From Parcubacteria group bacterium Gr01-1014_20 (GTDB lineage: Bacteria > Patescibacteriota > Minisyncoccia > UBA6257 > 2-01-FULL-56-20), in the NCBI GenBank assembly GCA_007376265.1, contig VMFW01000010.1, positions 1,945 to 65,944 on the forward strand: a DNA stretch of 64,000 nucleotides. Reading direction: 5' to 3'. This document shows positions 3,555 through 57,107 of this stretch, piece by piece. Below the pieces are notes generated by a model. The model saw only the letters and a list, made by a program, of their open reading frames with translations. It did not search any database and was not told where the DNA came from. The position numbers and the translations under genes were made by a program. Position 1 is the first letter of the stretch. Every line of letters starts with the position of its first letter.

Positions 3555-5021
3555 TTATAGGTTAAAGATTTTGTCCGTGTTGACTGGTTCTAGATTTCTA
3601 AATTTACGGTGAGCAAACTCGTTAGTTTTTGAGTTGTAGCCGTAGTCTCCGGACCAAGCTCTACCTTTTCGAGCGACTTCCTTTAGTGCCTTTATGATAA
3701 CCGAAATTTCTTGGCTCGACATTATAGGGTTAATGGAAAGGCGGACGAAACCAGGTTTTGAGGAGTAATCGCCATGACCAAGCTGGTCAGTGATTTTTTT
3801 AGAGATTTTTTTATCAATATTAAAAAGATGGTGACCGTAAGTGCCGGCGCAAGCGCAACCCCCGCGAGTTTGGATACCAAAGCGGTCGTTTAACAACTTG
3901 GAAACTAGGTTGTAGTGGAGGCCTTCTATGTTAAAAGAGATGACGCCGAGGCGATGTCCATGCTCCCCCGCTAGAATATGGAGGTTGCTTATTTTTTTCA
4001 TCGCTCTGAAAAGTAGGGTCAAAATTTCTTTTTCACGGGCTAAAATGTTTTTTATACCCATTTTTTCCTTGAGTTTAATGGCTAGAGCGACCTTAATGGT
4101 GCCCAAGAAAGGCGGAGTCCCACCGTCTTCACGAGCCTCAATGTTTTCGAAATAATGATGTTCGCCCCAAGGATTAGTCCAAAGAACGGTGCCACCGCCA
4201 GGATGGTCGGGGACCTTATTAGAATAGAGGTTGGAGTCGAAAATCAGAATACCGGGTGTTCCCGGGCCGCCTAGAAATTTGTGGGGTGAAAAATAGATGG
4301 CGTCCAATTTTTCCCGTGGATCCCGAGGGTGCATATTTATTTTCACGTAAGGAGCGGCGCAGGCGTAGTCAACAAAACAGAGCCCTCCGTTTTGGTGGAT
4401 GAGTTTAGCAATTTTGTGAATGGGCGGCTCTAGGCCGGTTACGTTTGAAGCGGCGCTCACAGCGGCGATTTTCCGCTTTCGGTTTTTGTATTTTTTTAGA
4501 AGTTTTTTAAAATTATCTAAACTCACTAAACCATCACGCCCAGGTGGAACAATCTCTACGTCACAAATGGTTTCTAGCCAAGAAGTTTGGTTAGAGTGGT
4601 GCTCCATATGCGTAATAAAAACAACTGGTCGGAGGCCAGCTGGCGGTTTGACGAATTTATTTAGTTTTTCTGGAACCCTTAAGCCCAGGATGCGCTGCAA
4701 TTTATTTACAGCGCCAGTCATACCAGAACCAGCCGCAATTAAAATGTCGCTATCGTTAGCGCCGGCGTGGTGCTTAATAATTCTTTGGGCTTCGTGATAG
4801 CTTCTTGTCATGGCGGTCCCGGTGACCGTGACCTCGGTGTGAGTGTTGCCCACAAAGGGCCCAAAATCTTTGACGAGTTTTTTTTCGATGGGTCCGTAAA
4901 GCCGGCCGCTCGCCGTCCAGTCAGCGTAGATGATTTTCTTTTGGCCGTAAGGGGTTTCAAAGCGCTGGTTATAACCCACGGTATTTTTTCTGAATTGGTC
5001 GAAGCGTTTCTCGAGAGACAT
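3555..5021 (-). CDS. class V aminotransferase-fold PLP-dependent enzyme (cysteine desulfurase / selenocysteine lyase-like)
   Basis: 488 aa, with YADWTASGR, HMEHHSN and FSPHKFLGGPGTPG (PLP-lysine context) motifs. Confidence 0.7.
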   Translation of the reverse strand: MSLEKRFDQFRKNTVGYNQRFETPYGQKKIIYADWTASGRLYGPIEKKLVKDFGPFVGNTHTEVTVTGTAMTRSYHEAQRIIKHHAGANDSDILIAAGSGMTGAVNKLQRILGLRVPEKLNKFVKPPAGLRPVVFITHMEHHSNQTSWLETICDVEIVPPGRDGLVSLDNFKKLLKKYKNRKRKIAAVSAASNVTGLEPPIHKIAKLIHQNGGLCFVDYACAAPYVKINMHPRDPREKLDAIYFSPHKFLGGPGTPGILIFDSNLYSNKVPDHPGGGTVLWTNPWGEHHYFENIEAREDGGTPPFLGTIKVALAIKLKEKMGIKNILAREKEILTLLFRAMKKISNLHILAGEHGHRLGVISFNIEGLHYNLVSKLLNDRFGIQTRGGCACAGTYGHHLFNIDKKISKKITDQLGHGDYSSKPGFVRLSINPIMSSQEISVIIKALKEVARKGRAWSGDYGYNSKTNEFAHRKFRNLEPVNTDKIFNL

Positions 5022-6133: not shown

Positions 6134-7015
6134 TTACTTTTTGAGCTGTTTCTTGGCGGAGACAAGACGTTTATCGCCTCCGACGCTAAGGGTCGGATAC
6201 TTGAGTTTCATAGACTCAAGCGCAGAGACAATGACAGTTGAGATCAAAGCGGCGGTGAACCACTTGTTGTCAGATGGGACAATGTACCAGGGAGAGGCCT
6301 TCGTGCTCGTTGCGGAGATCGCTTCCTCATAGGAACGCATATACTCACTCCAGAGGGCGCGCTTGGCGATGTCGTCGAGTGAGAACTTCCAACGCTTTTC
6401 GGGAGTGTCGATTCTTTCGAGGAAACGTCTCCCCTGTTTTTTCTTTGAGACGTTCAGGAAGAACTTGAGAACGACGGTGCCGTTATCGGTCAAGTATCTT
6501 TCGAAATTGACGATTTCTCGGAAACGGCGAGTCCAGATATCCTTGTCTTTCAGATCGTCGGGTAAGCGTTGCGCCTTCAGGATCTCGGGATGAACTCTCA
6601 CCACAACTGTTTCTTCATAGTAGGAGCGGTTGTGGACGCCAATTTTGCCACGCTCAGGAAGGCCCTTCACGCACCGCCACAAGTAATCGTGAGCCAGTTC
6701 TTCCGCCGAGGGAGACTTGAAGCTGTGGACCTGGATGCCCATGGGATTGATACAGTCCATGACCCGGCGAATAGTGCTGTCTTTGCCGGCGGCGTCCATG
6801 CCTTGAAAAATCGCCAGCACCGAACGAGTGCCATCTGCGTAAAGAATTTCTTGGAGCTCAGCGATTCTTCGTGAATTGACCTCGAGGATCTTCAGGGCAG
6901 CAGCCTTGGTAAGACCACCAGTGGAGCCAGGATCGTAGTCTTTGATCGACACTCGTTTTCCGGGTGGTGCCAAAAACGGTTTCGCATTGATCTTCTTTTG
7001 CTTCTTTTTTGCCAC
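6134..7015 (-). CDS. ppk2: polyphosphate kinase 2 family (polyphosphate:nucleotide phosphotransferase)
   Basis: Walker A GMDAAGKD and overall PPK2 architecture, 293 aa. Confidence 0.9.
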   Translation of the reverse strand: MAKKKQKKINAKPFLAPPGKRVSIKDYDPGSTGGLTKAAALKILEVNSRRIAELQEILYADGTRSVLAIFQGMDAAGKDSTIRRVMDCINPMGIQVHSFKSPSAEELAHDYLWRCVKGLPERGKIGVHNRSYYEETVVVRVHPEILKAQRLPDDLKDKDIWTRRFREIVNFERYLTDNGTVVLKFFLNVSKKKQGRRFLERIDTPEKRWKFSLDDIAKRALWSEYMRSYEEAISATSTKASPWYIVPSDNKWFTAALISTVIVSALESMKLKYPTLSVGGDKRLVSAKKQLKK

Positions 7016-7115
7016 TCGTACTCCCTCCGTGAAAAGTTATGAATTAAGAGATTGTGAGCCAAAAAACTGCCTTAGATTCTAAACTAAAACTTGTTCTTTG
7101 TCAACTAGGAAGAAC

Positions 7116-9194
7116 TTACTCAAGCTTTAGCTCTTTTATGGTTTCCCAGCTCTTTTCGTTTAGAACTACTACTCGATCATCACCTACAACATAGAGATAG
7201 TCGTTAAGATAAAGCGCGCGGCGAGAGCGAATTTGGCTCACCGCTTTTTTAAGCGAGAGAGTGTTGCCTTCATAAGAGAAGACGTATCCCCCTTCGCCGC
7301 CAGGTAAGAAGAAAATGTTGTGAGCGGCGTCACTTAGAAACGCGTGATGGGTGCTTTGAACTTCGGTCCAGTAGTCTTTCAAGGAGTATTTGGAAATTTC
7401 GGTGGGGTTCGAGGGATTTGAAACATTAAATAGAGAGAGCTTGACACTGCCACCTTCTTGGCCTACCCCTAAGATCAAGTTTTTCTCGAGCGGGTGGAGG
7501 TAGGAAGAGAAGCCGGGGATTTTAAGTTCGCCTTTCATTTCGGGCTTCCTGGGATTCGAGAGGTCTAAAACGTAGAATGGGTCGGTTTGGCGAAAGGTCA
7601 CAAGATAGCCCCGATCCTCAACGAAGCGAGCCGAGTAGATTCTTTCGGTAAGCCCCAGATCGCGCACGGAGCCAATAATGTTTAGCCCGCCGTCTAAGAC
7701 GTAAACATCGTTCGCGCTCTCCGCGTTCCCACCACCAAAACCCCAGAAGAAGCCACCCTCTATAGTTGAAGCCAAACGGAGATTGTTGTTCCACTCATCC
7801 ATCGAGAATTGGTTTAAGAGAGTACCGGGAATGTTGCCGGTCGCGGCAATTTGTAAATTGTTTAGAGAAATCTTAGTAAGACCAGTTTTAGAAAGTTCGC
7901 GGATGTGACTCTTCATATAATCCTTCAGACGATTTTGGATTTCGTTTTCAAATTTCAACCGATCGTCTTTTTCCAAGGAATTTAGATGGCGATCTAAAAT
8001 CATCTGAAACTCATTCATTTTGGAAGACTGACTAATGTCGTAGCCTTCTAACTTTTCGAGTTGGGTCAAGACTGAAGATGAAACAAGGTCGCGAGCTTTT
8101 TCCTTAAAAAAACCGAGGAAAATTTTCACGTAATCGCCGGGATAGGAGTAGGCCACATAAAGCGCATTCGGGGACATGTAGATGACAGACGAACCAGAAG
8201 TGCCAACGAAAGAAAGGTGGTTTTTAACCGAACCAGTTTCCGGATCCAAAATCATGGCGGTGTAAGTGACGTCTGCCGGGGTCTCGGCGCGGGGGTGGTA
8301 AATTTCAGTACAAGGAATAGAGAGGGCGCTCCCTTTTACGGTCACCGGTATAAAAGGACAGGGATGGCCGGAATTGACCCAGGTTTGAGTAACTAAATAG
8401 ATTTTTCCATCATGGAGCCGAGAGGTTGAGAGGTAAGAGTTATCTTTCAAATCGACACGCCATTTTTCTGTGGGCGAGTCGGGATTTGATACATCGTAGC
8501 CGAATACAGACTGGCCTTCAAAAATAACGAGGATTTTACCGCTCAGCAATAGGTTGCCGGATTTTTGAATTTTGGTCCTTAGGGCCAAGGATTCCGGCGG
8601 GAAAGCTTTTAAAACTTTGGTTTCGCCGCGATTTTGGGGATAGTAATCTGGAGCGATTCTCTTATCTTCGCCTATGGCTGGCTCCATCATCGGCATAGGA
8701 CGACCATAGTAATAGAAAGATTCGAGGGAAAGATAGATTTCTTTGCCGTTGGTTTTCAAAATGTCGGGTTCGTCGATACCAGAAACTTGAACGTTAGTAC
8801 CCGAGACGCGATCAGGCGAAGCGGTAGATTTATTATCAGCGCCGGCGATCGGAGAGGGCGCGCCGGGCATGGCGTCTGATTCCATCATCGGAGCCATCTG
8901 CCTCAAGGCCACGCCGCTAAAACCGAAGCCGCCCAGATTCTCGGCGTTCGAGAGATATTCTTTAAATTCGACTTCAGATTTAAATTTAACGAAAGTGCTT
9001 AGGGTTTTATCCGACTTCAGATCTTCTGGTACTTTGCCTTGAGGATCTGAACCGGGGTTTTTAGGAAACCAGTCATTAATAACGGGGAAACCAGCCTCTG
9101 GGTTATTCAGCCATGAGGTGACAAACAGGGCACAAAGAGTGCCGAAAACGACAATCACTGCTAGCGCAGTCTTGGTACTAATTTTTTTGTGCAT
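7116..9194 (-). CDS. secreted beta-propeller domain protein (Beta_propel family-like)
   Basis: N-terminal signal/TM segment. C-terminal blocks (YVLDLSNPRKPEMKGELKIPGFSSYLHPL, YLYVVGDDRVVVL) are characteristic of the secreted beta-propeller family. Confidence 0.55.
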   Translation of the reverse strand: MHKKISTKTALAVIVVFGTLCALFVTSWLNNPEAGFPVINDWFPKNPGSDPQGKVPEDLKSDKTLSTFVKFKSEVEFKEYLSNAENLGGFGFSGVALRQMAPMMESDAMPGAPSPIAGADNKSTASPDRVSGTNVQVSGIDEPDILKTNGKEIYLSLESFYYYGRPMPMMEPAIGEDKRIAPDYYPQNRGETKVLKAFPPESLALRTKIQKSGNLLLSGKILVIFEGQSVFGYDVSNPDSPTEKWRVDLKDNSYLSTSRLHDGKIYLVTQTWVNSGHPCPFIPVTVKGSALSIPCTEIYHPRAETPADVTYTAMILDPETGSVKNHLSFVGTSGSSVIYMSPNALYVAYSYPGDYVKIFLGFFKEKARDLVSSSVLTQLEKLEGYDISQSSKMNEFQMILDRHLNSLEKDDRLKFENEIQNRLKDYMKSHIRELSKTGLTKISLNNLQIAATGNIPGTLLNQFSMDEWNNNLRLASTIEGGFFWGFGGGNAESANDVYVLDGGLNIIGSVRDLGLTERIYSARFVEDRGYLVTFRQTDPFYVLDLSNPRKPEMKGELKIPGFSSYLHPLEKNLILGVGQEGGSVKLSLFNVSNPSNPTEISKYSLKDYWTEVQSTHHAFLSDAAHNIFFLPGGEGGYVFSYEGNTLSLKKAVSQIRSRRALYLNDYLYVVGDDRVVVLNEKSWETIKELKLE

Positions 9195-10183: not shown

Positions 10184-10660
10184 CTACATGGAGCGGCGAG
10201 ATTTGAGAATAACTAAAAGACCGAGAATAAAGAGCAGGGTCGAAGTAAGCGCCGAAAACATGCAATAGATGCAGATGGCTTTGATAATAACGAGTTGGAT
10301 AAAAACAAAATAGATGGCGGCGAGCAGACCGAAAATATTTAAGTAGGAAGCGTAGAGGAAGTACTTTTCATTTTTCCGATCGAGAAATAAGATTGATAGG
10401 ACGATGATGAAAAGATAGTAGATGGAACCTAAAAGCGCGACCGGCACACCCAAAATGACCGAATACTCACTCGTAGTCACTTTTTCGCAACCCTCAACGA
10501 TGGTGCAGGGCGGAATGACGCCCCGAAAATGTTCGACGGAGAGATAGGTCGCGTCCAAAAAACCCAAAAAAGCGACCACTAGAAAAGTGATCGCTAGGGC
10601 TTTACTGACTAACGGCTTGGGGAGTAGCGCCGTTTTTGATGAGGATGGTTCTAAATTCAT
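10184..10660 (-). CDS. vitamin K epoxide reductase (VKOR) family membrane protein
   Basis: Multi-TM protein with a loop Cys pair (CTIVEGC) and a CIYC active-site-like motif. It overlaps the upstream DsbA gene by ~59 nt. Confidence 0.7.
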   Translation of the reverse strand: MNLEPSSSKTALLPKPLVSKALAITFLVVAFLGFLDATYLSVEHFRGVIPPCTIVEGCEKVTTSEYSVILGVPVALLGSIYYLFIIVLSILFLDRKNEKYFLYASYLNIFGLLAAIYFVFIQLVIIKAICIYCMFSALTSTLLFILGLLVILKSRRSM

Positions 10661-11315
10661 CGTAGCTTAGGGGGTTTTGGATGCTCTTTCCATTTACGAA
10701 AAAGGTTGGAGTGCCTTGGATTTGAGCTTTGAGGCCGCTCTGGTAATCACCTTCAATCTTGTCTTTAACGATTTGGGATTTGAGATCGACTTTAAACTGT
10801 TCAAGGTTTAGGCCAAGAGACTCGGCGTAGCCAATAACGATTTCTTCAGCGTTCGAAGCGTTTTCCCAAGACTTCTGGTTTTTATAGAGCAGGTCGTGCA
10901 TTTCCCAAAACTTTGCTTGCTTACCAGCGGCTTCGGCGGCCTGGGCCGTGATGTCAGCATTTTTGTGGATACTTCGGAGCGGGAAATATCTGTAGACAAA
11001 AGCAATGCTGTCGCCAAATTCTCGAACTATTTCTTTGGTGAACGGATGATAGGCGGCACAGGCGGGGCATTGGTAGTCGCCGTATTCAACTAAAACCACT
11101 TTGGCGTCGTTTTTGCCCAAAAACCAGTCGGTCTGGGAGATGCTATCGGTTAAGATGGCCGTTTGATTACCGGTAGGGTTGCCACCACCCACAAAGAGCA
11201 TGGAACCGACGGAACCAGCAATTACCGCGATCACGATCACCCAGGTGATAATCGACTTAACGTTCCCCTCTCGGGATTTTTTATTATTTTTTGAGAACCC
11301 AGATTGGTTATTCAT
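10602..11315 (-). CDS. DsbA-family thiol:disulfide oxidoreductase with an N-terminal membrane anchor
   Basis: CPAC thioredoxin active site within a DsbA-like fold, with a TM anchor at the N-terminus. Confidence 0.8.
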   Translation of the reverse strand: MNNQSGFSKNNKKSREGNVKSIITWVIVIAVIAGSVGSMLFVGGGNPTGNQTAILTDSISQTDWFLGKNDAKVVLVEYGDYQCPACAAYHPFTKEIVREFGDSIAFVYRYFPLRSIHKNADITAQAAEAAGKQAKFWEMHDLLYKNQKSWENASNAEEIVIGYAESLGLNLEQFKVDLKSQIVKDKIEGDYQSGLKAQIQGTPTFFVNGKSIQNPLSYDEFRTILIKNGATPQAVSQ

Positions 11316-11469
11316 AGTTGGAACATCCTATCACTATTCGGGTAAAAATGCAAGCAGCGGCTTCAGGACTCGGTTAGGAATCTGAAATACCAAATTTGAA
11401 ATAAAATTAAGCTCAAAGAAACCGCGATAGCCCAAAGAAGATATCGCAGAAAGGAACGGCCAAAATTTT

Positions 11470-15529: not shown

Positions 15530-15700
15530 GGGGCGAAAATAAAAATCTTCCACGAGGAAGATATAAGTTTCGACGACTTTATCTTTCCTCGGAGTCCTTT
15601 CGGACCGAGGCTGGATTTAGCACCTTCTCTTTTTTACAAAGAGCGGTTGCTGGCGGGTCATCGAGCCAGAACTCTCGCCGCGCTCAAGATAAGCTATTAA
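15530..15700 (-). promoter_or_regulatory. SAM-I (S-box) riboswitch with its terminator in the metK leader
   Basis: The minus strand reads GCTTATCTTGAGCGCGGCGAGAG..CTGGCTCGATGACCCGCCAGCAACC...GGTGCTAAATCCAGC...GAAAGATAAAG. These are the S-box conserved blocks (P1 5' strand, kink-turn/P2 region and GGTGCTAAnTCC) with P1 closure. A terminator hairpin (CGAGGAAAGATAAAG...CTTATATCTTCCTCG plus a T-run) follows. Track ORF 15473..15700 is therefore spurious. Confidence 0.8.
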
Positions 15701-26087: not shown

Positions 26088-26100
26088 GATTTTTATTTTT

Positions 26101-26265
26101 GTATGTGGCTGGGGTGGGGAATCTCACGTCGCCTCGCATTCGCGAGACTCTTTCAAAACCCTCGGTTTTGAATTATTTCCGACACGGGGAAAACTTTCCT
26201 TTTCCCCGACCCCCTTTTGCGTTCGATCCTCAGCCAATAAAGTTTTTTTGGGGGGGATGGTCTTG
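26101..26265 (-). mobile_element. tRNA-Met-associated miniature element (copy A), bounded by a second copy of the tRNA 3' end
   Basis: A 23-nt direct repeat of the tRNA-Met 3' end (GATTCCCCACCCCAGCCACATAC) sits at 26101-26123, against the original at 26266-26291. Internally there is an antisense T-arm fragment (GGCTGAGGATCGAAC), the hairpin GGGGAAAAggaaagTTTTCCCC and GCGAGGCGACGT. The element is homologous to copy B at 56881-57036. Confidence 0.45.
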
Positions 26266-26270
26266 GTATG

Positions 26271-26344
26271 TGGCTGGGGTGGGGATCGAACCCACGACCT
26301 TAGCGTTATGAGTGCTACGCTCTAACCAACTGAGCTACCCAGCC
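26271..26344 (-). tRNA. tRNA-Met (anticodon CAT; elongator type, G1:C72), CCA not encoded
   Basis: GGCTGGGTAGCTCAGTTGGTTAGAGCGTAGCACTCATAACGCTAAGGTCGTGGGTTCGATCCCCACCCCAGCCA; no C4/C5 lysidine-type acceptor determinants. Confidence 0.85.
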
Positions 26345-38896: not shown

Positions 38897-41812
38897 ATGA
38901 AGGGAGTCGGGGGAATGTTTAAAAAATCAAAAAACATGAAGGTAATTTTTAAAAATCTGGTTGCGGTCGGTTTGTTTTTAGTTTCTATATCAACGGCGGG
39001 TTTGGTCTTGGCGCAAGAAGCGGCGCCAGCGCCGGAAGCCTTGGTTCCGGTTAGTTGCTTCGACTTTTATAAATTCGGGAGTGTGGGCGTGGAGGTGGTG
39101 CCAAGCCTGACCGAGATTGCGAACGGAGGCGAGCTGGATTTTGTTTTGAACGTTACGAATGAGAACGATTATCCGGTGGTGGAGGGTTCGATTTACATGA
39201 AGATTTACCGAAAGCAGACGGACGCGGCGAACGCGCAAAAGAATGGCAGCCATTTAATCGACTATACCCTGGTAAAAGAGAAGGTGAATCTTGACGCCAA
39301 GGCGACTAGGAAATTCGAGTTCACCTGGAGGGTGCCAACGGGGGCGCCAAGCGGAGAGTATGAGGCGGTAACTTATTTTTTGTCGGACGAGAGGATGAAC
39401 CTTTTGGGTTTACCTTTTACGGATGATGTTTCGGGAGGAAGGAATTCTTTTAAGATTGTGAGCGATACACAAGGAACGGTTCAGCTCGACAAAAACAAGG
39501 TGACCCTAAACAATAAGGCCTACCGTTTTGTTGGAAATACATCTCCCTTCTCAAAAGACGAAAAAGTGATCGTGCGCTTTCCGATAACCAACACCACGAA
39601 GACTAGCCAAGCTGCAGAGGTAAGTTACGATTTGTATTTCTGGGATGGGACTTTGGATAGCCAAAGACTGAAAGCCAAAAGAGAGGTCGTGACGCTTAAG
39701 GCTGGGGAGACAAAAACCCTGTCTTATGAAATTGATAACACGAGTTATCCGGTCTATTACTTGGTAGCGAAATCGAAGTGGCAAGATTCCTCTTCGATAC
39801 TGAATGTGAGGTTTGCGAGAAACGGCGTTAGTCGTGGAAGAATAAACTTTGTGGGACTTAGTAAGTTTCCTCTCGCGAGCGGCGAGGCAAATACCGTTTT
39901 CGCTTGTATTCACAACGCCTCCCTAGAACCAAAGACGACCGGAAAATTTGAACTGGAGTTGGTTGATAGTGAATATAACGTGATTAAAAAGTACACCTAC
40001 ACCGGGGACATCACGGGAAACATGATGGGTTTTAAAGGAGATTTCACCGCCCCGGCGAGCTACGGCGCTCTAACTTTGCGGGCCAATGTATTTGATGGAG
40101 GAGAAAAGCTGGTGGATCAAGTTGATTTGACCTATGACTGTCGGGAAATTGATCCGCAAAAATGTCCGACGGGAGCGACGGCACCAACTGATACCAAATC
40201 GGGATTTCCAAAACTAGATATGGTCTGGATGGTAGTTGGAGGGGTAGTCGTTATATTCATTGTGGTGCTGACAATAATCATGGCTAAGAAGAAAAAAGTA
40301 AATCTGCCGCCACCAGGCGCGACTGGTTCCCCTATTCAAAGGGGTCCGAGCGCAGGGGCGATGAAGATATTAATTGGCTTGCTGGTTTTAGGGTCAGTTT
40401 TTCTGCCAGGTGGTCTGGCCGAGGCAAGACGAAGTGTTACCTTTTTTAACAATGATACCAGCATAACCGATATTTTCTTTCCAGATCTTGGCCAACCACT
40501 CATATCCGGAGTGCAAAATGCGAAAATGAATGGGCTCACGATAAATTACGACGTTACCTACTGGGCAAGCGCCTACGAAGAAGGGAGTATGCGGGTAATC
40601 GACCAGGCTGATGGCAGAGAAGCCGTCCAATCTGGTTCTTTTATCAACGTTTCCTACGACAATAACGATTTCACGAGGCCGGCGGCCAACATTAACTGGC
40701 TCGAGACTGGTAACATTCAGGGCACGCCGACTGGCATTTGGGATACCAACAATAATGGACAGATCGATTACCCTTATCCAGTTGCTCAGCGGTGCAACGC
40801 GCTCGATAACATGACAACCCCGGTGATGAAGGACGGTGATGAGTTGCAGATGACGATTTCCGCGCCTTTTGTGGTCCAAAAGCCGAGGATTACATTTAGC
40901 AGTTCGGACTCTTTTATAAGCTGTAACAGTCAACCCGGAACAACTTTTGCCCAGTGCGCAGTGACCGGGGGAGTGGGAAGTGTGGGTCACATCGAAGTAA
41001 AGTTTGATGAAACGCCCAGTAAGCACTTCGCGGACGTGAGGGGCTCTGCAAATGAATGCTACTCTGGAGCGGGAGCTGCGGTTATAAATGATTTTGTGGT
41101 GTGGCCGAGCAATGGGGCGAGTATAATGTTCGAATTTGACGTGGTGGGCCAAGCGCCTGTAGGTCTTGCGGCACCGGTTTTAACGGGACCAACGGCGGCG
41201 GTAAAGTTGGACTCAAAAACTTATAGCGCCCTCGTGGGAACTAACCCACCGGCCGTTTCGCTAAAATATACTTTCCAAAGAAAGTATGGCTTAAATGGGA
41301 GCTGGGTGGATGTGGGCACTTCGAATGCGACCCCGCCAACCGCTGGGACAAGTAATATTATTTTTGCAAACACGGGAACTTATTACGTTAGAGCTAAAGC
41401 GGAAAACTTGTCGAACGCCCTTGTCTCTGGTTGGAGCAACGAGATTGCGGTTACCGTGAGTAATACGCCAGCGGGTAATGCGCAGTGTTCGAACGGAATT
41501 GATGATGACAGCGATACCTTTATTGATGCGGCTGACCCTGGGTGCCACACCGATGGAGATGCTACCAACCCTGGTTCATACGATCCGAGTGATACCGATG
41601 AGACAAATCAGGGCGGAGCGGGAGTGTGCGTTTTGGGCGACCCACCAAGACAAATTGGCACTTGTAGCGCCAGTTGTGGCCCAGGCGTCCAGCGCTGGGA
41701 AAGATACGTCGATGTTAACGGATCTTGTGAGATCGAGTACTATACGGAACCGTGCAATCTTAGGGCCTGTGGATATAGAATTAGAGAAGGAAATCCTGGG
41801 GGGGGAGGATAA
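38897..41812 (+). CDS. large surface protein (971 aa) with a signal peptide, an internal double-TM hairpin and a Cys-rich C-terminus carrying a thrombospondin-type-1-like motif
   Basis: N-terminal signal peptide. Mid-protein segment MVWMVVGGVVVIFIVVLTII-KKKK-...-ILIGLLVLGSVFL. C-terminal CSASCGPGVQRWERYVDVNGSCE...EPCNLRAC. Confidence 0.55.
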   Translation: MKGVGGMFKKSKNMKVIFKNLVAVGLFLVSISTAGLVLAQEAAPAPEALVPVSCFDFYKFGSVGVEVVPSLTEIANGGELDFVLNVTNENDYPVVEGSIYMKIYRKQTDAANAQKNGSHLIDYTLVKEKVNLDAKATRKFEFTWRVPTGAPSGEYEAVTYFLSDERMNLLGLPFTDDVSGGRNSFKIVSDTQGTVQLDKNKVTLNNKAYRFVGNTSPFSKDEKVIVRFPITNTTKTSQAAEVSYDLYFWDGTLDSQRLKAKREVVTLKAGETKTLSYEIDNTSYPVYYLVAKSKWQDSSSILNVRFARNGVSRGRINFVGLSKFPLASGEANTVFACIHNASLEPKTTGKFELELVDSEYNVIKKYTYTGDITGNMMGFKGDFTAPASYGALTLRANVFDGGEKLVDQVDLTYDCREIDPQKCPTGATAPTDTKSGFPKLDMVWMVVGGVVVIFIVVLTIIMAKKKKVNLPPPGATGSPIQRGPSAGAMKILIGLLVLGSVFLPGGLAEARRSVTFFNNDTSITDIFFPDLGQPLISGVQNAKMNGLTINYDVTYWASAYEEGSMRVIDQADGREAVQSGSFINVSYDNNDFTRPAANINWLETGNIQGTPTGIWDTNNNGQIDYPYPVAQRCNALDNMTTPVMKDGDELQMTISAPFVVQKPRITFSSSDSFISCNSQPGTTFAQCAVTGGVGSVGHIEVKFDETPSKHFADVRGSANECYSGAGAAVINDFVVWPSNGASIMFEFDVVGQAPVGLAAPVLTGPTAAVKLDSKTYSALVGTNPPAVSLKYTFQRKYGLNGSWVDVGTSNATPPTAGTSNIIFANTGTYYVRAKAENLSNALVSGWSNEIAVTVSNTPAGNAQCSNGIDDDSDTFIDAADPGCHTDGDATNPGSYDPSDTDETNQGGAGVCVLGDPPRQIGTCSASCGPGVQRWERYVDVNGSCEIEYYTEPCNLRACGYRIREGNPGGGG

Positions 41813-56802: not shown

Positions 56803-56874
56803 GTCCCTGTAGCTCAATGGATAGAGCGTAGCCCTGCGAAGGCTGAGATCGAGGTTCGATTCCTCGTAGGGACA
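56803..56874 (+). tRNA. tRNA-Arg with the unusual genomic anticodon GCG, CCA not encoded
   Basis: GTCCCTG-TA-GCTCAATGGATAGAGC-G-TAGCC-CTGCGAA-GGCTG-AGAT-CGAGGTTCGATTCCTCG-TAGGGAC-A; resembles Arg(ACG) tRNAs but with G34. Confidence 0.7.
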
Positions 56875-56880
56875 CAAGTT

Positions 56881-57036
56881 TTTAAATTTATGCTTAAAAT
56901 CTTTACGAGGAATCGAACAGGGAAAGGGGTCGAGAAAACGAGAGTTTTCCTGTGGCGGAGCTCACGAACCGATGGGTTTGTGGGAGCCTCGAACAAAGCG
57001 AGAGGCGACGTTCGCTTCCTCGTAGGGACACAAGTT
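56881..57036 (+). mobile_element. tRNA-Arg-associated miniature element (copy B), bounded by a 27-nt direct repeat of the tRNA 3' end
   Basis: DR1 GTTCGATTCCTCGTAGGGACACAAGTT sits at 56854-56880 (inside the tRNA) and DR2 GTTCGCTTCCTCGTAGGGACACAAGTT at 57010-57036. Internally there is an antisense T-arm piece (CGAGGAATCGAAC at 56906-18), the conserved block AAAGGGGTCGAGAAAACGAGAGTTTTCC, and GCGAGAGGCGACGTT. Confidence 0.45.
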
Positions 57037-57107
57037 TTCGGGATCCATATTAAACTAACTTGAAAATAGATGAAGCTCTAATGTAATATTAAGCCCAAGT
57101 AAATTCT

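Follow-up and report, generated by a model that had tools for sequence, protein, structure and literature searches.

Small structured elements closed by sense and antisense copies of the host 3' end recur behind tRNA genes and resemble a new type of mobile element without genes

Why would the 3' end of a transfer RNA (tRNA) gene be repeated a short way downstream, with an antisense copy of its T-arm in between? The question is raised by a tRNA-Arg(GCG) gene of Parcubacteria group bacterium Gr01-1014_20 (assembly GCA_007376265.1, contig VMFW01000010.1). We analyzed positions 1,945 to 65,944 of this contig, a stretch of 64,000 nucleotides (nt) referred to here as the window. One of its encoded proteins has an NCBI counterpart from this genome at 100% identity. 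Coordinates are those of the window unless a locus is named (L numbers). The original prediction, made from the sequence alone, was that the last 27 nt of this tRNA and its trailer recur downstream. The repeat is present, but its length was understated. It is 33 nt long and 94% identical, with 156 nt from start to start, and it reaches 8 nt beyond the tRNA end (Table 1). The first copy is termed X and the second X''. The antisense copy, X', was correctly seen: it is complementary to the tRNA at 15/15 positions and to X'' at 14/15 positions (inverted-repeat search). The sole differences between X'' and the tRNA are G52>C and A58>C, and X' is still perfect. In the fold, X' is the 5' strand and X'' the 3' strand of a helix, P0, that can be extended with G-U pairs back to 56900, and the ~90 nt between the two arms fold into hairpins. 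This arrangement recurs behind many other tRNA genes and suggests a gene-less mobile element of a new kind. The family is apparently undescribed. A literature search found no description of these elements, and the repeats go unmentioned in a paper on tRNA introns in Patescibacteria (PMC13011429).

The same architecture had been claimed for the tRNA-Met(CAT) locus of the window, and this held. We refer to the Met element as copy A and to the Arg element as copy B. The Met locus has a 23 nt direct repeat (26263-26285 vs. 26098-26120, the latter taking in the trailer part of X''). Both loci are laid out as tRNA, spacer, X', a core of two to three hairpins, and X''. Their alignment, tRNA included, gives a mean column identity of 77%. 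Both copies fold far better than chance, with z = -4.9 for copy B and -3.5 for copy A and 0/200 shuffles as stable in either case. A three-block core pattern has exactly two matches in the window, the Arg and Met loci, and none in 100 dinucleotide shuffles. A third candidate, near the tRNA-Asp at 38900, was rejected as a ribosome-binding-site region. An assembly duplicate of one region is ruled out, because the copies lie beside different tRNAs and are ~25% divergent. Independent assemblies (L012-L018) also have homologous elements at their orthologous tRNA-Arg site.

Table 1. Features of the two elements and their host genes in the window.
Feature	Positions	Strand	Basis
Copy B: intact tRNA-Arg(GCG) host gene, with the discriminator A at 56874	56803-56875	+	ARAGORN; Rfam tRNA 56803-56874, 67.6 bits
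Copy B: first copy of the direct repeat (X), from the T-arm through the acceptor 3' strand to 8 nt of trailer	56850-56882	+	Repeat search
Copy B: spacer, imperfect AT-rich hairpin (AAGTTTTTAA / TTAAAATCTT)	56877-56903	+	Sequence; inverted-arm alignment
Copy B: X' TACGAGGAATCGAAC, antisense of tRNA positions 53-67 (T-loop, T-stem 3' strand, acceptor start)	56904-56918	+	Inverted repeats; fold
Copy B: J1, purine-rich conserved joiner (AGGGAAAGGGGT)	56919-56930	+	Alignment of 119 cores
Copy B: hairpin 1 (CGAGAAAAC...GTTTTCCTG)	56931-56952	+	Fold; covariation, 120 unique cores
Copy B: J2, conserved joiner (TGGCGGAG; family consensus GTGGNGGAA)	56953-56960	+	Alignment
Copy B: hairpin 2 (CTCACGAACC GATG GGTTTGTGGG)	56961-56984	+	Fold; 35 distinct stems in family
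Copy B: variable 3' segment (optional hairpin 3), ending ...GCGAC	56985-57009	+	Alignment
Copy B: direct repeat copy 2 (X''); T-loop-like GTTCGC, then exact tRNA positions 59-73 and 8 nt of trailer	57006-57038	+	Repeat search; fold
Copy A: host gene tRNA-Met(CAT)	26270-26344	-	ARAGORN; Rfam
Copy A: element; X' 26221-26235, core 26126-26220, X'' 26104-26125	26098-26237	-	Repeats, alignment, fold, core pattern

A core pattern built from the blocks common to all variants was run on a metagenome collection and matched at least 120 loci. About 125 genuine cores are found among the matches listed, and only three matches (L034, L087, L138) look like chance. The family is so far known from one Parcubacteria genome and from groundwater, sediment, lake and soil metagenomes. 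Of 129 listed matches, 72 lie 10-130 nt downstream of a tRNA on the same strand, and 32 anticodons are represented. In 48 of the 65 unique tRNA-linked cases listed, at least 14 of the last 17 nt of the host recur right after the core. The further copies are thus each bounded by the 3' end of their own host, which was the outcome expected by the original prediction, and the proposal of an element family over a random duplication is borne out by these copies behind other tRNA 3' ends. Nine more copies were added by an nhmmer profile search of the fetched loci, some of them second copies behind neighboring tRNAs. Two host tRNAs are interrupted by a group I intron and were missed by ARAGORN (L052, 11083-11320; L033, 1508-1703); there the element is located behind the 3' exon. 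The link to tRNAs is not exclusive. Hosts also include transfer-messenger RNA (tmRNA; L119, L063) and some hairpins that are not tRNAs. In L037, L046, L090, L101 and L130 the same topology is made from unrelated sequence, with an upstream hairpin X-loop-X', the core, and X'' as a repeat of X. The suggested tie to tRNA genes lacking an encoded CCA proved incidental, as CCA is encoded by 9 of 48 host tRNAs. The host tRNA or tmRNA gene remains intact.

Some loci hold more than one element, either behind two adjacent tRNAs (L141, L121) or as two cores ~100 nt apart (L133). A subfamily without a tRNA host (L080, L101, L066, L046) has similar flanking arms (GCTCATATTGAC...), and its repeat takes in the apparent start of the downstream open reading frame (ORF; ATGAGCAATAATGAC...). 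L080 adjoins the gene of elongation factor G (EF-G).

Family members are roughly 120-200 nt in size, structured, and encode no protein. A coding function was rejected; only short ORFs cross the element, and hairpin indels would break any frame. The consensus order is a spacer (usually a hairpin), X', J1, hairpin 1, J2, hairpin 2, a variable hairpin 3, GTKMGA, and X''. The core accounts for ~75-100 nt of this, from J1 to the T-loop-like GTKMGA at its 3' end. The consensus is NGGRAAG GGGUC for J1, GGGAAAAC-loop-GUUUUCCC for hairpin 1, GU GGNGGAA for J2, and ...AAACC-loop-GGUUU... for hairpin 2. The hairpin 3 segment is missing in minimal members and long in others. The right end is invariably ...GTKMGA abutting X''. 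The spacer is 1-80 nt long and unconserved, as is the sequence directly after the first repeat copy, and there is no fixed terminal inverted repeat. Across the family the core is enclosed by P0, and P0 is made of host sequence on both strands.

X' copies the host exactly in antisense, starting at G53 and covering the T-loop, the 3' strand of the T-stem and sometimes the acceptor (10-24 nt). It tracks host-specific variants of the T-loop, e.g., GTTCAAAT and GTCCGATT. X'' repeats ~18 nt of the upstream gene in the sense direction, usually tRNA positions 59/60 to ~76. In 29 of 48 cases, X and X'' begin to be identical at position 59-60. Their identity ends at +3 past the discriminator in genes that encode CCA, and mostly at 0 to +5 (modal +1 to +3) in those that do not. 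These edges imply a unit of ~17-18 nt, positions 59-76, with a minority of longer repeats; the overall range is 12-64 nt with a median of 19. The core is thereby bracketed by the two halves of a T-loop (...TCGAAC | core | GTTCGA...). The spacer hairpin often prolongs the inverted repeat of X', and the whole stretch from G53 to the trailer is then mirrored, except that in most members the mirror copy is without 7-9 nt of the acceptor 3' strand. These AT-rich palindromes of the spacer have perfect stretches of up to 28 nt and match the trailer of the first repeat copy, not of the second. Copy B has only an imperfect spacer hairpin, while other family members usually have a longer, perfect one. 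A retro origin of X'' from mature tRNA was rejected, because X'' gains no CCA at loci whose gene does not encode it. Among ~39 hosts that do not encode CCA, it follows X'' only in L057 and L088, which is about chance level. The heptamer GCGAAGC is found repeatedly in hairpin 3 and directly ahead of X'' (...ATAGCGAAGCG...) in many loci (e.g., L049, L057, L071, L134). It corresponds to a DNA mini-hairpin of unusual stability, which would suit a single-stranded DNA form.

The hairpins of the core covary. Across 120 unique cores hairpin 1 does so at stem positions 4, 7 and 8. At position 4, 52 cores have GC, 64 have AT and 4 have GT; at position 7, 82 have AT and 34 have CG. RNAalifold on a MAFFT alignment recovered hairpin 1 alone, because variation in loop length misaligns hairpin 2, which we therefore analyzed sequence by sequence. 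It has 35 distinct stem sequences, with complementarity kept in all. At the Arg locus of L013-L018, both hairpin 1 (GGGGAACC...GGTTCCCC) and the closing helix show compensatory changes. The joiners are conserved as well. Among 119 cores, J1 is conserved to 90% or more at A7, G9 and the like, with the invariance of its GGGTC partly imposed by the search pattern, and G40, G41 and A42 of J2 are nearly invariant outside that pattern. G-U pairs are rare (16 in ~1,900 stem pairs). Loops are often of GNRA type (GGGA, GGAA, GCAA, GAAA, GAGA). The covariation, the conserved joiners and the scarcity of G-U pairs point to a folded single strand under selection, either RNA or single-stranded DNA.

The elements come and go between relatives. 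L148, at 72% protein identity, has an empty site, i.e., tRNA-Met, a short trailer and then the gene. L146, at 80%, retains a truncated remnant with only X', J1 and half of hairpin 1. In L008, with a neighboring protein 87% identical, the Arg locus lacks the core. L012 and L013, at the same locus, share an identical neighboring protein (P0009) and have strongly different cassettes. Related cores are found at different tRNAs. Among the matches listed there are 15 tRNA-linked cores whose nearest tRNA-linked neighbor is at least 90% identical, and in 15/15 that neighbor is at a different anticodon. Near-identical cores with different hosts include a pair at Gly-CCC and Lys-CTT (95%) and a pair made up of the window Met copy and one at Val-CAC (92%). 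In L039, L062, L103, L058 and the window, the repeats reach 8-49 nt into non-functional trailer or terminator sequence, which implies recent duplication at the DNA level. In L062 and L103 a canonical terminator (GC stem and T-run) lies between the tRNA and the core. L062 (7868-8080, minus-strand orientation) has a 64 nt repeat that spans the tRNA end, the terminator and X', with a solo X' left after X''.

Copy B itself is an old, fixed and stable member of the family that has not jumped recently. The Arg(GCG) copy is kept at the orthologous site in L013-L018, where the neighboring protein is only 51% identical, and the Arg(GCG) copy of L105 has the same unusual hairpin 2.

The region of the tRNA-Met element appears to be an assembly breakpoint in relatives: in L007, L146, L147, L148 and L149 the contig ends ~100-300 nt upstream of the gene next to the element. 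Inserts of another type, unrelated to the 3'-end element, occur at tRNA 5' ends. L008 has a 133 nt hairpin-rich insert with a 9 nt repeat of the tRNA-Arg 5' end (10479-10621), L013 a 93-aa GIY-YIG ORF with a 15 nt repeat of the tRNA-Arg 5' end and a leader that resembles the L008 insert (4627-4950), and L148 an incomplete 5' copy of tRNA-Met in which the D-loop is altered (~44-100). L008 also has a 217-aa helix-turn-helix protein between tRNA-Arg and tRNA-Gly, at the position of the element in the window (10804-11457). It has weak Pfam matches to HTH_23 and HTH_SB and looks like a homing endonuclease, and a related family is found near tRNAs in six loci.

We looked for a known family or a partner gene that would account for the element. 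At the gathering threshold, Rfam 15 found only tRNAs, rRNA and a SAM (S-adenosylmethionine) riboswitch in the whole window. For the Arg locus, nothing but noise came up at E values of up to 10, and eight consensus-like loci scanned up to E = 1 had no match on the core. ARAGORN and the Rfam tRNA model found only genuine tRNAs and no cloverleaf in the element. Neither core pattern matched viral contigs. An earlier pattern requiring GAGGCGACGT, run on a genome collection, gave six chance matches (histidine-kinase paralogues and the like), none with a tRNA; this block is not conserved in the family. We clustered the ORFs within 2.5 kb of the ~125 elements and found no cluster of recombinases, integrases or reverse transcriptases. 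The largest cluster is EF-G (seven loci), and small GIY-YIG and helix-turn-helix ORFs are found at six loci each. The latter two appear to be separate selfish elements at tRNA flanks. The neighbors are otherwise heterogeneous, with no coherent set of downstream genes as expected for a riboswitch or another cis-regulatory leader. No related autonomous insertion sequence with the same ends was seen in ~1 Mb of fetched loci. A candidate autonomous copy in L127, with a 13 nt repeat 3.7 kb upstream, was rejected since the repeat is inside the ORF of a type I restriction-modification methylase. In the same locus a large serine recombinase (Resolvase, Recombinase and Zn_ribbon_recom domains; 6579-8210, minus strand) abuts X'', and there is no tRNA within 6.5 kb upstream. 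The L127 element may sit at the border of an island, given the type I restriction-modification genes upstream.

The original prediction left two possibilities, a miniature mobile element mobilized in trans and a structured RNA module linked to tRNA 3' ends. These are still the leading pair, and the evidence leans to the first. Our preferred explanation, to which we give a probability of roughly 0.45, is a non-autonomous mobile element that is moved in trans and inserts behind T-loop-bearing RNA genes via a folded single-stranded intermediate. The element would insert just 3' of a gene that carries a T-loop and leave the host unharmed. In the process, the stretch of host sequence between the T-loop and the end of the gene would be duplicated, as a long target-site duplication, with a precise right-hand junction and a variable left-hand part. 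The antisense arm may pair with host sequence, either in the choice of the target or in a hairpin that mimics the target. The moving form would be a folded single strand of DNA or RNA, and the enzyme would act in trans and be encoded elsewhere. Mechanisms worked through on paper, i.e., complementary DNA snap-back, twin priming and hairpin opening at a break, were rejected as none reproduces all junctions; in particular, they do not account for a spacer palindrome that corresponds to the trailer of the first repeat copy only.

Several points weigh against a mobile element. Its mobility in trans is something we infer, and no transposase, integrase or reverse transcriptase partner was found near the ~125 listed loci. 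The left end of the insert has neither a conserved terminus nor a terminal inverted repeat. L039, one of the two youngest-looking copies with a 64 nt repeat that is 63/64 identical, has an X' that matches the tRNA at only ~14/17 positions, and X' is therefore not always freshly templated. The solo X' after X'' in L062 is not predicted by a simple insertion model, and such a model leaves the matching of X' to each new tRNA unexplained. The persistence of the Arg(GCG) copy in distant relatives also counts against it, and the strongly conserved joiners and GNRA-like loops would suit a functional RNA. Further, the apparent conservation of the core is inflated, because the pattern used for sampling fixes parts of it.

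A bolder version of the mobile element is possible, if rather doubtful. The core would then be self-retargeting, a structured RNA or single-stranded DNA that finds the universal T-loop by antisense pairing and copies the host 3' end on insertion. The agent would be either an unrecognized enzyme acting in trans or the catalysis of the core itself.

The strongest rival, though we consider it unlikely, is a structured non-coding module that acts as RNA, with spread between loci as a secondary matter. It would be transcribed alone or together with the tRNA or tmRNA, and P0 would enclose a three-way junction that binds a protein or ligand. The antisense arm would pair with the host 3' end or with X'' as a decoy, giving a device for processing, stability or switching. 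The compensatory changes in hairpins 1 and 2 favor such a module, as do the frequent GNRA loops and the single-stranded J1 and J2, which are conserved also at positions that the search pattern left free. The stems themselves speak against it, since G-U pairs are nearly absent; this is unusual for functional RNA. In its favor again, tandem G-A pairs are predicted in P0 where X'' is GTGAGA, and in L105 X' matches X'' and not the present tRNA. The stable folding of both window copies and the retention of the element at the orthologous tRNA-Arg locus across deep divergence are also in line with an RNA function. At the same time the element is dispensable, as seen from the empty site and the decayed remnant in close relatives. 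In L062 and L103 the terminator stands ahead of the core, the repeats that run into trailers and the perfect spacer palindromes point to events at the DNA level, and a coherent downstream gene set is lacking. A mobile element and an RNA module are compatible, and the element could be mobile while moving through or producing a structured RNA.

It is improbable that the elements are by-products of replication or repair, produced with no dedicated enzyme when a template switch or microhomology-mediated repair links T-loops at different loci. All tRNAs share the T-loop box GGTTCGAACC, which is close to a palindrome, and a pre-existing core would be copied together with inverted and direct host segments. 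The T-loop halves on both sides of the core, the variable repeat lengths and the lack of a partner enzyme agree with this, and the combined inverted and direct duplication would resemble fold-back or template-switch products. Left unexplained are the conservation and covariation of the core and the tight clustering of repeat edges at 59/60 and ~76. In addition, the five loci with unrelated flanking sequence (L037, L046, L090, L101, L130) have a flanking helix that is not derived from any T-loop. The T-loop is a classical sublocation of integrase sites, and the original prediction had compared the repeat with the attL/attR footprint of an integrase. That the elements are cargo-less scars of tyrosine-integrase integration, left by islands or prophages at tRNA genes, is very improbable and largely refuted. 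In its favor, the repeat starts in the T-loop, tmRNA is also used and a serine recombinase lies beside X'' in L127, but no integrase is found in or near the ~125 listed loci, one core family occupies 32 anticodons with near-identical cores at different tRNAs and not one site per lineage, independent deletions would not repeatedly leave the same 90 nt remnant, and the antisense arm and repeats of up to 64 nt are foreign to att sites.

We compared the element with known systems. In CTX-phi-type integrative mobile elements exploiting Xer (IMEX) and in attC sites, two inverted target-like copies ~90 nt apart fold into a hairpin that mimics a double-stranded target. The integrated order of a CTX-phi-type IMEX is hybrid site, rest of the element, inverted copy, ~90 nt and hybrid site, the same order as X, spacer, X', core and X'' in our elements. 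In our elements too, the inverted target-like arms fold (P0, in both window copies and across the family). The known systems use dif with XerCD or attI with IntI, whereas the target here is the T-loop region of any tRNA or tmRNA. The arms are accordingly T-loop sequence, and ATCGAAC and GTTCGAT do not fit RYYYAAC and GTTRRRY. The central part is unconserved in IMEX and attC, whereas the core is the most conserved part of our elements, which are only ~150 nt long and have no recombinase cluster nearby. Integrative elements at tRNA 3' ends and casposons also have a direct repeat of the tRNA 3' end that flanks the insert while the tRNA stays functional. As in casposons, the repeat is ~15-18 bp long and anchored by an upstream motif, and several of our members adjoin the EF-G gene. 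The elements described here differ in having no integrase or Cas1 gene, no terminal inverted repeats of their own and no cargo, and in using many different tRNAs.

Miniature inverted-repeat transposable elements (MITEs) and short interspersed nuclear elements (SINEs) likewise are short and non-coding, occur in more than one copy per genome (two in our window) and are present or absent between relatives. In our elements the inverted repeat X'/X'' is host-derived and not a fixed terminal repeat as in MITEs, and the duplications are far longer than the 2-10 bp that are typical there. A precise 3' junction, a variable 5' part and target duplications of varying length are shared with target-primed retroelements. 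Our elements have neither an A-tail nor a tRNA-derived promoter head, and no partner transposase or reverse transcriptase was found near the ~125 loci. Finally, plant mitochondrial t-elements and mascRNA are also located directly downstream of a gene, and the terminal helix of our element reproduces part of the acceptor/T-stem stack. The element could therefore be cut by tRNA-processing enzymes. It differs from them in having no cloverleaf, and the helix of most members is without its acceptor part.

Patescibacteria, whose genomes are tiny, are regarded as poor in mobile DNA. A widespread gene-less element at the 3' flanks of many of their tRNA and tmRNA genes would be a major unrecognized part of their genome dynamics, and one that appears to break assemblies exactly at its site. 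None of the insertion mechanisms compared accounts for a conserved structured core closed by sense and antisense host copies, an arrangement that hints at base pairing with the universal T-loop as the way in which targets are chosen. If mobile, the element could lead through its enzyme to a new system for site-specific or guide-directed insertion, and if it acts as RNA, it would form an abundant RNA class of a new type with ties to tRNA biology.

In the window, the flanking genes encode a ComF-like protein, a membrane protein and a sigma factor. The SAM riboswitch found by Rfam is on the minus strand at 15576-15695 (66.5 bits), and the 5' part of a 23S rRNA gene, cut at the window edge, occupies positions 1-854 of the same strand.

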